Of a DNA stretch of 64,000 nt, positions 39,507 through 63,104 are shown piece by piece. Under the pieces are notes generated by a model. That model did no database searches. It was not told the DNA's origin and saw only the letters and a program-made list of their open reading frames with translations. This stretch comes from Nitrospirota bacterium (GTDB lineage: Bacteria > Nitrospirota > Thermodesulfovibrionia > Thermodesulfovibrionales > Dissulfurispiraceae): the NCBI GenBank assembly GCA_963710375.1, contig CAVPZX010000002.1, positions 960,001-1,024,000 of the forward strand. Direction: 5' to 3'. The first letter of the stretch is position 1, and each line of letters begins with the position of its first letter. The position numbers and the translations under genes were made by a program.

Positions 39507-41919
39507 ATGGAAGACATAAAGACCGAAGAAGTAAACGGCTCCTACGGAGCCGAAGATATAAAAATCCTTAAGGGCCTCGATGCGGTTCGAAAGCGGCCGG
39601 CTATGTATATTGGCTCTACCAGTATTGACGGCCTTCACCAACTTGTTTATGAAGTAGTGGACAACAGTGTTGATGAAGCGCTTGCGGGATACTGCACATT
39701 GATAGAGGTCATCCTCCACCACGACGGCAGCTGCACAGTCATTGACAACGGAAGGGGCATACCCACAGGACTCCATTCCGGAGACCCTGAAGGACGGACA
39801 GCAGCTGAGATCGTGCTTACCGAACTTCATGCAGGCGGAAAGTTCGAATCGTCCGCATACAAAATATCCGGCGGTCTTCACGGAGTCGGGGTATCTGTAG
39901 TTAACGCACTCTCCGAGTGGCTCGAGATGGAGGTCAAGCAGGAAGGGCTTGTATATACCCAGCGTTTTGAACGCGGGAAACCGGTGACAAAGCTTAATGT
40001 TACAGGGAAGACAAAAGGACGCGGGACAAGGATAACCTTCAAGCCCGACTCCGAGGTATTTGAAGTCACCGAAGTCCATTATGATGTTCTTGCGCAGCGG
40101 CTGCGGGAGCTTGCTTTCCTGAACAGGGGGCTCCAGATAACCTTGGCTGATGAAAGAACAAATCCGCCTGAGAATCAGGTTTTTCTGTATAAAGGCGGCA
40201 TTGTCTCCTTTGTCGAACACCTTAACAAAAATAAGACGCCGCTGCATCCCAAGCCCATCTATATCGAAAAAGAAAAAGACGGTGTCATGGCCGAGATCGC
40301 CATACAGTACAACGATAGCTATGCGGAAAACATTTACACCTTTGCCAATAACATCAACACCCGTGAAGGCGGCAGCCATCTCGTTGGTTTCAAATCAGCG
40401 CTGACAAGGACCTCAAACAGCTACGCCACGTCCTCGGGGATCATAAAAGAGGGCAAAGAGAGCGTCTCCGGCGACGACATCAGGGAAGGGCTCACAGTCT
40501 GTGATCAGCGTAAAGCTCCCTAATCCCCAGTTCGAGGGGCAGACCAAAATGAAACTCGGCAACAGTGAAGTCAAGGGGATCGTAGAATCCATTACCAATG
40601 ACGCTCTCTCAACATATTTTGAAGAGAACCCCTCAGTAGCGAGGAAAATCATAGAGAAGGCCATACAGGCCTCAAGGGCGAGGGAAGCTGCCCGGAAGGC
40701 GCGGGAGTTGACGCGGAGGAAAGGAGTGCTGGAGGACACCGGGCTTCCTGGCAAGTTGGCGGACTGCTCTGAGAAGGACCCAGCAATGTCAGAATTGTAC
40801 ATAGTTGAGGGCGACTCAGCAGGCGGCTCTGCAAAGCAGGGCAGGGACAGACGCAACCAGGCGATACTGCCACTGAGGGGGAAAATCCTTAATGTGGAAA
40901 AGGCTCGTTTCGATAAAATGCTGACCTCGGAAGAAATAAGGACATTGATAACAGCACTGGGCACTGGTATCGGACCGGAAGAATTCGACACAGCAAAAGC
41001 CCGGTATCATAAGATAGTGCTGATGACTGACGCTGATGTCGACGGCGCCCACATCAGGACCCTTCTCCTTACGTTTTTTTACAGGCAGATGCCGGACCTG
41101 ATTGACAGGGGTTACCTCTATATCGCGCAGCCGCCCCTTTTCAGGATAAAAAAAGGGAAGTCCGAGAAATACGTCCAGAACGAGGCAGAACTCATGGAAA
41201 TGCTTTTTGAGCTCGCTACCGAAGACCTTAAAATAAATACGCCGGCAGGCCAGCTCGGAGGCAAGAGACTGATACCTCAGCTCAAGAAAATCCCCAAATA
41301 TGAAAAACTCCTGGCCTGGTTTGAAAGGAAGCGGAGAGACCCCGAAGTCATCGCGCAGCTCCTTGTTCTCGGTATAGATAAAGACAATTTCAAAAGCAAG
41401 GAGGCTGTCGCGGAGCTCCTGAAAAAGATAAAGGAAAAAATCCCTTCAATAAGTCACGGGGACATAACCTTTGATGAGGAGCACGAGTCGTTTGAGGTTG
41501 AAGTTATACGCCAGAATTATCAGTGTACACTTTCGACCTCGCTGATACTCTCCCCTGAGTTTAAGGACCTTGAGGTGCATTACAAGGAGTTGACCCAAAC
41601 CTTCGGGCAGCCGCCCTACAAACTCGAAATGAAGACAGAGATTAAGGAGGCCTCCTCGCTGCAGGAACTGCTTGCGACTATAACAGAGACCTCCAAAAAG
41701 GGACTAACCATTCAGCGCTACAAAGGCCTTGGAGAAATGAACCCGCAACAACTATGGGAAACCACCATGGACCCTGCAAAAAGGACCTTCCTCCAGGTCA
41801 CGGTCGAAGACTCTGTCAAGGCGGATGAGATGTTCACCGTGCTCATGGGCGACCAGGTCGAGCCAAGAAAAGATTTTATTACTGTACATGCGCTTGAGGC
41901 GAGGAATATTGATATTTAG
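39507..41919 (+). CDS. gyrB: DNA gyrase subunit B, apparent +1 indel near 40499 (probably a sequence error)
   Basis: [51 protein letters not shown]; removing one base restores LTAVISVK. Confidence 0.97.
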
Positions 41920-41931
41920 GTGAAGCATGCT

Positions 41932-42000
41932 TGTCGGTTAACGCATAAAGTGAAAAACTTAACACATATGATGAAAAAAATTAACGCATAAAATGAAAAA
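41932..42000 (+). repeat. Tn7-like end, gyrB-proximal (right end by Tn7 convention): three closely spaced TnsB-type sites
   Basis: TGT terminus; taacgcataaagtgaaaaa 41939, taacacatatgatgaaaaa 41960, taacgcataaaatgaaaaa 41982. Confidence 0.88.
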
Positions 42001-42298
42001 AGTTAGTTCTGTGTCGGTTAAGTTAAGGGATGTGTCAGATAAAGGATACAAAAATAAGGAAAGAAGCAAACGATTTAAAGAAGGGTTTCTGACTGACGAA
42101 GACATAAAGCGGATAAGGAAGAAACTGGGATTCACCCAAAAGCAGATGGCTGAAAAATTAGGGGTTGGTCTGAAGACTTTCGCTCGTTATGAGAACCTCT
42201 CAGTCCGCCAGGGCAAGGCGATGGATAATTTGTTGAGGATATTCGATAAATATCCAGAAGTTATGGCAGTTTTTGATAAAAAAATTGCATCTTCTTAA
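41993..42298 (+). CDS. MqsA-like XRE HTH antitoxin domain (orphan, no zinc finger)
   Basis: LTDEDIKRIRKKLGFTQKQMAEKLG...FARYE...QGKAMDNLLRIFDKYPE. Confidence 0.72.
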   Translation: MKKVSSVSVKLRDVSDKGYKNKERSKRFKEGFLTDEDIKRIRKKLGFTQKQMAEKLGVGLKTFARYENLSVRQGKAMDNLLRIFDKYPEVMAVFDKKIASS

Positions 42299-61899: not shown

Positions 61900-62196
61900 A
61901 GAAGCTCCCTTAAAGGTGAATGTGAAAGCCAAATCAATATCTTTCAAGTATTGTACATAAAACATCAGATGAATTGGAAAAGAACGAGAGGTGTTGCAAT
62001 AGAGACGATACCATATGGAAATTAATTTAATATTGAAAAAGTTGAACGATGAATGGTAATTGCGGCTATAGCTGATAGCTAGCATGTGATCGACCGGGCC
62101 TCGAATAGGATCCAATATATTTTAGAGCAAATACTCGAAATTAAAATAGAATTTGCATTTTAGCCTGGGTCAACAATTGAACGGTGATGTGTGGAA

Positions 62197-62330
62197 TTTT
62201 TCATTTTTTGCGCAAAATCTTCCGGAATTTTTCACTTTATGTGCAAAATATTTTCATTTTATAAGATAATAGGTTTTGTAACTTATTGAAATTACATCGG
62301 GGCAACTTTCACTTTTTGAGAAAACCTATA
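62197..62330 (-). repeat. Tn7-like distal end (left end): four TnsB-type sites; terminus reads TAT instead of TGT
   Basis: tttttcattttttgcgcaa 62197, tttttcactttatgtgcaa 62228, attttcattttataagata 62250, actttcactttttgagaaa 62305; register matches the proximal end. Confidence 0.75.
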
Positions 62331-63104
62331 GCATGCTTGTTGTGGGTTGACGCATAAACTGCAATTCCTGACTCATAAGTTGCAGTAAATTGACGCATAA
62401 GCTGCAATAAGCTTTTGTTGAACGTGTGCAGAAAAAAGTAGATGTTGTGACTGAACACCAGATAATGGTACTAGCACACTAACTAGGGTGGCAGGATAAA
62501 AGCCAGAAGCTGTAAAAAAAGAGAGGCTCCACGTCTTCCCTCGTACCTTGCACTATTCGTTTGTTTGGTACACCCTAATCCGCTTTGTTCAAATTGTTGC
62601 AGCAGTGAAGATTTTCGAGAGAAGTCCACAGACCGGGCCAGAATAAGCAACGGGGATACTCATTAGTGAAAAATTAAACAGGTTTATCCCCCGTTTGCAT
62701 GAATTTGTTGTACGCCATCTTGCCATAATGCTGTCAAGTTCAAATAGTAGAAGGTAGTGTCTCAGTTTGATTTTTTGTATAATATAGTTCAGGAGGTGAT
62801 GTCTTTGAAAGCAATTTTGATGTAACGCCTGAAGCTCCTTAATAACGCAAAAGTATTTATGTATTTATGATACGAAGGGGAGCGCCACCGACAGGGCTGT
62901 TGGGATTGCCAACTTAGATGCTCACTCATCTAAAATGTTTGAGGGTGGTTATTGCAATGGTATGTCATTTTATCAGACGGGAACGGGTGCGTAGAGTGAG
63001 TAAGCGCCCGGCTTCTACTTTTTTTCTTGACAGGGAACGTTCGTTCACCTATAATTATTAAAAAGAACTTTACATTTTGATTATAGTAGATTAATGTTAA
63101 ACAA

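Follow-up and report, generated by a model that had tools for sequence, protein, structure and literature searches.

Did the transposon that lies just behind gyrB choose that gene, and if so, through which of its proteins? The question is raised by a 64,000-nucleotide stretch of a Nitrospirota genome of the family Dissulfurispiraceae (assembly GCA_963710375.1, contig CAVPZX010000002.1, positions 960,001 to 1,024,000), analysed as a whole and here called the window, in which a Tn7-like transposon (41932-62330) follows the gene. The source genome is labelled G000 and the contig C2, so that C2:1025780 is position 65780 in window numbering. A preliminary description of the window had proposed gyrB as an attachment site for Tn7-like elements that lack CRISPR repeats, and the recurrence of such elements behind gyrB in other genomes bears this out; we consider the site very probably real. 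To the explanation as a whole, in which elements guided to gyrB by a TniQ/TnsD-type protein have stacked up behind it, we give a probability of roughly 0.7.

Transposon ends behind gyrB in two phyla

The gene-side end of the window's element (41932-42000, + strand) opens with TGTCGGTT at 41932, after a 12-bp gap behind the gyrB stop codon (TAG, 41917-41919), and carries three closely spaced TnsB-type sites (41938-41957, 41959-41978 and 41981-42000), as first described. The gene itself (39507-41919, + strand, recognised with Pfam) is a true gyrB and not parE: NCBIfam gyrB models outscore parE models, and the GyrB insert and hook domains are present. Ends were scored with a weight matrix trained solely on 14 Acidobacteriota ends, none of them at gyrB. 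The 41932 end reached 26.1 bits and the opposite end at 62330 reached 19.9 bits; in the source genome, 3.6 of every million positions score at least 15 bits.

Among 30 genomes of the order, the source genome included (31 gyrB ends), seven have an end of at least 8 bits within 20 bp of the gyrB stop, a frequency of about 23% against 0.5% in the control, where 13 of 2,466 open reading frame (ORF) ends of the source genome reached the same threshold. In two more genomes gyrB is followed by a TGT terminus and a partial site, and a pattern search of the phylum (401 genomes) added G298, G221, G396, G427 and G372. This search had matches in 23 of the 401 genomes, a raw total that was set aside because many genomes also matched the pattern when it was reversed as a control; of its 24 matches, 12 lie at a gyrB stop and were counted only where a TnsB-type site came next. 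Two parE-like matches (L100 and L101) were rejected, as they are followed by palindromes and not by ends. Over 24 occupied sites in two phyla the end begins +1 to +14 bp after the stop codon (+9 in G221 and +6 in G396), and 76-89 bp from the conserved Met codon of the motif LMGD.VEPR. The DNA of the last 26 gyrB codons, which include this motif (41842-41919 in the window, + strand), is conserved over these 24 sites and differs in 14 parE ends; none of the 14 parE 3' ends in the same genomes carries a transposon end. This stretch is the region that we predict the selector to read.

Most members of the order with an end behind gyrB are remnants without tns genes. Of 261 genomes of the order, 4 have a tnsC; the TniQ profile has a match in 3 of the 401 genomes of the phylum, and P0001, a homologue of the window TniQ, has one in 2 of 68 genomes of the family. 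In G517, found through its tnsC, an end stands 3 bp behind gyrB, and tnsABC with a 1036-residue TniQ (23% identity) follow 12-16 kb further along the same contig; the end type of G007 is that of G517. The Tn7-like loci of G063 and of G425, both distant, lie away from gyrB. In G004 (L034:150-1074; G004:C60) the last 37 gyrB codons are repeated after a toxin-antitoxin-like gene pair, presumably nucleotidyltransferase/HEPN-like, and a Tn7 end lies 12 bp past the stop of the second copy.

The site is also used in Alphaproteobacteria, where four loci whose TniQs are 24-29% identical over the core have an end 2-13 bp behind a true gyrB in all four genomes. In the family to which L056 belongs (that of G443), 151 genomes were searched and six have a homologue of the L056 TniQ; five of these homologues are on the strand of gyrB, 5-26 kb behind it. 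The TniQ of Bosea has matches in 11 of 111 genomes; all four at 83-100% identity come from genomes with the same end, 12-13 bp past gyrB, and their tns genes face the gene. An order-wide search (2 of 251 genomes) added G748, with its match 12.5 kb behind gyrB. Insertion orientation is constant within each alphaproteobacterial lineage. The elements of G1074, G1062, G1050, G957 and G748 are complete, with both ends around a single tnsABC-tniQ set and matching target duplications; the strongest case for the placement of an element at gyrB by its own TniQ comes from elements of this kind. Their duplications, read from L166-L170 with L138, L141, L142 and L158, are exact and 4 bp long in four cases (CGGC in G1074, TGGC in G1062, AGGT in G1050 and CCTC in G748); G957 has a 5-bp repeat, G443 a match at three of four bases and the nitrospirotal G372 5 bp.

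A separate feature of three alphaproteobacterial ends at gyrB (L138, L140 and L141) is an inverted 115-138-bp piece of a gyrB 3' region, 92-236 bp behind the gyrB stop and 78-88% like the host gene. The pieces stop 66-87 bp before the stop codon and are bounded by the same 12-base motif; a decoy, an antisense element or a captured remnant are possible interpretations.

Recurrence at a narrow offset and in constant orientation behind one conserved gene is the mark of TnsD-type homing, and we therefore read the pattern in that way. A very improbable alternative, largely refuted, is that untargeted insertions survive behind gyrB as in a harmless general sink for mobile DNA. Other mobile-looking genes do follow gyrB, such as the toxin-antitoxin-like pair with its repeated gyrB 3' end in G004, and in the source genome gyrA lies far away; but a sink would account poorly for the excess over control ORF ends, for a 14-bp window with constant orientation, for five of six L056-TniQ homologues at one gene, and for the four ends stacked in one genome that are described below.

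The site is defined by gyrB and not by the origin of replication. The window does have the order dnaA (36814-38148; Pfam Bac_DnaA, DnaA_N and Bac_DnaA_C), dnaN (38249-39355; DNA_pol3_beta 1-3) and gyrB, all on the + strand, but a position of the element next to oriC was not confirmed, as oriC could not be located: the region 33000-42000 holds three scattered DnaA-box-like 9-mers and the GC skew of the contig is noisy. Nor is an origin-proximal safe site supported as a general reason, since gyrB of Bosea is preceded not by dnaN but by a gene that we take to be RecQ-like. The source genome's gyrA (G000:C2:809432-810886) is 190 kb from gyrB; in L016 and L098 it directly follows gyrB.

The transposition genes and the stacked ends of the window

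Between the two ends lies a transposition operon on the + strand. The product of tnsA (50057-50704) matches Pfam Tn7_TnsA-like_N (PF08722) and has a PD-(D/E)xK motif (PDF at 69, EVK at 83), that of tnsB (50695-52954) has the DDE motifs, and that of tnsC (52958-54019) matches TniB and AAA_22 with Walker A at 74 and Walker B at 157; the tniQ/tnsD-like gene (54034-55941) encodes a TniQ zinc-finger core and an HTH_17 tail and has a TAG at 54904-54906. Pfam and the catalytic and zinc-finger motifs thus confirm a tnsA-B-C-tniQ set (50057-55941) directed away from gyrB. With tnsB, tnsC and a TniQ-domain gene in one operon the element is Tn7-like, and TnsA places it in the cut-and-paste subgroup. Among the scanned ORFs there is no TnsE and no second TniQ; two small ORFs are without a family, so a remote second selector is possible. 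The element was rightly called CRISPR-free: none of 26 ORFs scanned with Pfam is a cas gene (PADLOC was used as well), the window has no CRISPR-like repeat family, and Rfam has no match in 36000-64000. The Pfam scan found no interrupted gene and no recombinase-like ORF after tniQ.

Contigs from six runs (X1-X6) served as a check on assembly errors, junctions and the empty site. An extra base at about 40498 in gyrB is absent from relatives and from X1, X4 and X6 contigs, and one at about 52619, which splits tnsB, is missing in X1, X3 and X4; both frameshifts are therefore assembly errors, and a disrupted gyrB and a dead tnsB can be ruled out. The gene is thus undisrupted, as the preliminary description stated, with the insertion past its stop codon. 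By the same evidence the extra base at 43102 in the cargo cluster is an assembly error, and isolated single-base substitutions relative to short-read contigs of several runs stand at 44737, 50624 and 62172. In contrast to these errors, the in-frame TAG at tniQ codon 291 is unchanged in contigs of two studies (X1, which may be the source itself, and X3), and this stop codon is real.

The distal end (62197-62330, - strand) has the terminus TATAGGTT, then one site, a gap and three sites. Inverted TnsB-type sites (62197-62324) do close the element at 62330, but the terminus is TAT and not TGT as at 41932. Decay is rejected as the cause, as TAT recurs at the distal ends in G007, G010, G017 and G372. 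The ends are asymmetric, with a close three-site array at 41932 and spaced sites at 62330, the arrays lying inside an 8-bp terminus.

The described element (41932 to 62330) is real, but the island runs further than was described. After a 10-bp junction, GCATGCTTGT (62331-62340, + strand), which is bridged by X1 and X2 contigs, the proximal end of a second element begins (62341-62409, + strand), with TGT and three sites of a different, TGCAA type; an end of this type also follows gyrB in G002 and G298. A fourth Tn7 end lies 1.8 kb past the window at G000:C2:1025780. The bases behind gyrB recur at these junctions: GCATGCT stands before the first end (41925-41931, + strand) and again after 62330 (62331-62337), and its last six bases, CATGCT, follow the fourth end. 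The flank repeat of G017 is likewise 6-7 bp (six of seven bases alike); that of G010 exceeds 20 bp, but its proximal end is weak, which makes it a poor instance of a long duplication. The island is most simply read as the product of three insertions at the site, of which the latest would be the one next to gyrB, and of the later loss of two inner ends. The second segment also contains an IS3-type transposase ORF (G000:C2:1024236-1024997), and three further lone end-like sequences lie elsewhere in the source genome (G000:C2:168365, C2:2816 and C3:2249).

TniQ homologues and the choice of gyrB

Where do homologues of the window TniQ lie? A broad alignment (A1) was too little conserved for scanning the collection, and a narrower one (A2) was used. 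Its genome scan gave 16 loci: ten in Acidobacteriota, four in Alphaproteobacteria, P0001 and one weak match elsewhere. P0001 is an intact 636-residue protein with 73% identity over the tail, from a genome in the host's genus labelled Dissulfurispiraceae; its contig (12 kb) has no transposon end and its genome lacks the 3' half of gyrB. Viral contigs gave no match with two TniQ alignments, and 26 plasmid records matched, with 22-28% identity in the full-length matches.

Several results weigh against the explanation given above. The nearest homologues (P0001, P0002 and P0003, 44-73% identity) have no usable genomic context. None of the ten Acidobacteriota loci (31-40%) is at gyrB; five lie at a fadN-like promoter, two at dcd and one at an NtrC-type gene, and two are unplaced. 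A metagenome scan gave 16 loci, none of them a close homologue (20-50% best-segment identity), and no gyrB in any of the fetched flanks, most of which stop before the proximal end would be reached. The remaining L056-TniQ homologue, in G1011, lies away from gyrB, and the seven Bosea matches at 23-27% are found 14 kb (G864) and 86 kb (G934) behind gyrB or, in the other five, far away or on other contigs. Those TniQs that are located at gyrB are only 23-29% alike, and a single origin of all 12 gyrB rows in our trees is neither shown nor rejected (support 74). At the window locus the flank repeat is 7 bp (41932/62330) or 6 bp (41932/65780) and not 5 bp, and site identity is higher for 41932/65780 (16.4 of 20) than for 41932/62330 (14.0). 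Finally, X1-X6 contain no empty-site or joint contig of the window species, although contigs drop rare variants, so that absence is not implied.

The trees help to place these homologues. They were built by a quick method from the first 400-430 residues and carry warnings of long branches; the 61-row tree omits nine TniQ rows that are fragments. The window TniQ, P0001-P0004 and the G372 group fall in a clade without the fadN, dcd and NtrC rows (Shimodaira-Hasegawa-like approximate likelihood ratio test support 96 with 61 rows, 85 with 28 rows); the nine TniQs from alphaproteobacterial gyrB sites make up another clade (99), and G517 stands on a long branch. The next located relative in the window's own clade is G372, which has a full tnsABC-tniQ set (TniQ 29% identical to P0001). 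Its distal end, TATCGGTT, is followed by GTGTG, the same 5 bp that stand before an end 13 bp behind gyrB on another contig, and both contigs stop at similar insertion sequence-like ends; GTGTG is of low complexity, so the link to gyrB is good but falls short of proof. Mapping of the TniQ homologues, as the preliminary description had suggested, therefore gives a mixed result: G372 is tied to gyrB, the eight located Acidobacteriota homologues (31-35% identity) are elsewhere, and the nearest three are without context.

It could be argued that the gyrB site is real but that the tns-tniQ module (50057-55941) is a passenger, nested or rearranged into an outer element bounded by 41932 and C2:1025780, and that its TniQ aims elsewhere. 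The closer agreement of the outer pair of ends, the exact 6-bp repeat that flanks them and the other sites used by the 31-35% homologues all fit this idea. We nonetheless consider it unlikely, as a copy of the bases behind gyrB directly follows the 62330 end, which indicates that this end was itself inserted at the gyrB site; moreover, the same TAT-GGTT-TTCTCA distal end closes both this element and the gyrB-linked element of G372, whose TniQ is of the same clade.

The structure of these TniQs suggests how gyrB could be read. In an AlphaFold model of P0001 (mean predicted local distance difference test score 83.9) a TniQ core is joined to a tail of repeated helix-turn-helix (HTH) units. The core has its best match among the TniQ structures of I-F3 CRISPR-associated transposons (CASTs), and the tail has weak MerR-type matches; the TnsD structure in the PDB (8v32) matches the core alone (E 4e-6). 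TniQs located at gyrB range from about 570 to 1036 residues. All six gyrB-located or gyrB-clade TniQs with tails scanned or modelled have long tails, five of them with HTH_17 matches. The transposases at the site are only about 30% alike.

In the Acidobacteriota the sites are of other kinds. In the fadN group (L049:1930-2000, L085:12940-13009, L087:14350-14423, L088:9047-9120 and L050:3480-3561) the distance from the end to a perfect palindrome, itself upstream of a gene like fadN, is 48-49 bp (63 in one case), and the TniQs are short (403-508 residues) and lack the long HTH tail. The palindrome resembles a TetR/FadR-type operator, so that insertion there may be guided by a repressor of the host or by the operator of that repressor. 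Other elements lie a few bases behind dcd (L089:13317 and L090:19453) or, with a weak end, about 20 bp behind an NtrC-type regulator gene (L086:6431). Three Acidobacteriota elements have 5-bp target duplications.

These sites raise the question of whether at gyrB, too, a host protein near the 3' end, or the DNA structure there, recruits TniQ-TnsC, rather than TniQ reading gyrB alone. Such recruitment would explain how TniQs of so little similarity share a site and why the offset varies from +1 to +14, and it has a parallel in the related short, tail-less TniQs that land near an operator-like palindrome. However, the long tails of the gyrB TniQs with their HTH_17 matches, the parE genes of the same genomes that are never occupied and the constant orientation within each lineage make it improbable.

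We therefore return to direct recognition, and predict from the comparisons above that this TniQ probably recognises gyrB. By analogy with Tn7 (PMC11406308), the HTH tail of the TniQ/TnsD-type protein would bind the conserved last gyrB codons (LMGD.VEPR); TniQ would load TnsC, and TnsAB would then insert a few bases past the stop, with the closely spaced end toward the gene and gyrB left whole. Judging from Tn7 biology, each newcomer would land nearest gyrB and push older elements outward. The stop codon in tniQ may since have ended homing by this copy, the island now mainly holding defence-like cargo. Alternatively, the two halves may both be translated and work together, in the way that 10.1101/2025.07.27.667033 proposes for a TniQ/HTH_17 pair in two pieces; no good ribosome-binding site is evident by eye before the second piece of the window's tniQ. 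That homing to gyrB is one old HTH-array TniQ pathway across Nitrospirota and Alphaproteobacteria, with a cut stagger that has changed, to 4 bp in the branch of the Alphaproteobacteria and to 6-7 bp in that of the window element, is a tentative and somewhat doubtful extension.

The element carries further genes. An ORF of no known family (56060-56611, + strand) adjoins tniQ; its like also follows tniQ in two other Tn7-like elements (L031:5521-6015 and L130:9374-9790), a second copy in the source genome (G000:C2:845025-845429) lies near a weak tnsB-like match, and the ESM Atlas has no match for it. A protein with a sigma70 region-4 HTH (48682-49341, - strand) is divergent from tnsA and has a weak homologue at the same place in the G372 element. 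An MqsA-like HTH protein (41993-42298, + strand; Pfam MqsA_antitoxin and HTH_3) is either cargo or a regulator. Beyond these, cargo genes on both sides of the tns operon look like defence genes: PRTase-CE, an ORC-CDC6-like ATPase and a CARF-like protein (42316-46158, + strand; Pfam and PADLOC), an N6 DNA methyltransferase with an unnamed partner ORF (46211-48087, - strand; Pfam N6_Mtase, PADLOC MTase_II) and a 950-residue HD-CE/NACHT/FGE-sulfatase protein on the - strand, which shares the cargo region 56673-62115 with an 8xMP membrane protein and two unnamed ORFs (Pfam). The second segment, which closes at G000:C2:1025780, carries a dCTP deaminase-like cargo gene (63105-63770, + strand).

Significance and comparison with known Tn7-like systems

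The attachment sites named in the available parts of the published literature are glmS, comM, parE, nrdB, nrdD, yhiN, ffs, guaC, yciA, rsmJ and tRNA genes. By term counts, neither 'gyrB' nor 'gyrase' occurs in the main text of PMC11406308, PMC8649781, PMC10293859, PMC11014353, 10.1101/2020.07.02.184150 or 10.1101/2025.07.27.667033, and gyrB is also absent from three supplementary files of PMC10293859 and part of a table of PMC8649781; in the available part of PMC12452197 it serves solely as a phylogenetic marker. The literature searched holds no paper on a gyrB attachment site, although bioRxiv supplements and subscription papers may bear on novelty. We take gyrB to be a genuine attachment site and, apparently, an unpublished one.

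It would thus join the list of Tn7-family sites, used in two phyla by transposases only distantly alike. As new sites are expected by specialists in this modular family, the surprise is moderate; less expected are the spread over dissimilar transposases and the departure from 5-bp duplications (4 bp in four complete elements, 6-7 bp at the window locus and in G017). The 5-bp duplication has been called characteristic of all Tn7 relatives, in a source available in part, and one old pathway with an altered stagger, if true, would break that rule. The 4-bp duplications offer a direct handle on the determinants of TnsB stagger, and gyrB and the known parE sites form a natural pair for asking how TniQ tails distinguish paralogous genes. 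Almost all bacteria have gyrB, whose last codons are conserved, so that an active selector for it would complement attTn7 as a non-disruptive tool for integration over a broad range of hosts, those with poor glmS targeting included.

How does the element compare with known systems? CASTs have cas effectors and a CRISPR array or homing spacer, neither of which was found in the window element, and Tn6022/AbaR elements insert inside comM with TniQ and TnsF, whereas the window element interrupts no gene. Closer in layout is the nrdD-located Clade I element described in the available part of 10.1101/2025.07.27.667033, in which a TniQ core is joined to, or stands directly before, an HTH_17 protein; the stop codon in the window's tniQ gives the same two-piece layout. 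That element uses another host gene, and its split is proposed to be functional, whereas the nearest homologue of the window TniQ is fused. The parE-targeting elements (Tn7017/EasCAST and CRISPR-free kin in Acinetobacter and other Gammaproteobacteria) share a TniQ-guided landing behind a type II topoisomerase B subunit gene, as far as the available parts of PMC11406308, PMC11014353 and 10.1101/2020.07.02.184150 describe them; their TniQ has about 486 residues, fewer than any gyrB-located one, and the target here is a true gyrB, with parE ends unoccupied. In the available part of PMC11406308 the closely spaced end faces the target gene at TniQ sites, and TGT...ACA termini are typical of Tn7-like elements, with known exceptions. 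The likeness to Tn7 itself, with TnsABC+TnsD acting at attTn7, comprises TnsA, TnsB, TnsC, a long TniQ-domain protein, harmless insertion past an essential gene and a closely spaced end on the gene side. Tn7-type elements also stack at one site, as those of the window do. Tn7 differs in its glmS target and its TnsE, and the window element in its gyrB target, HTH_17-array tail, TAT distal end and 6-7-bp flanks.

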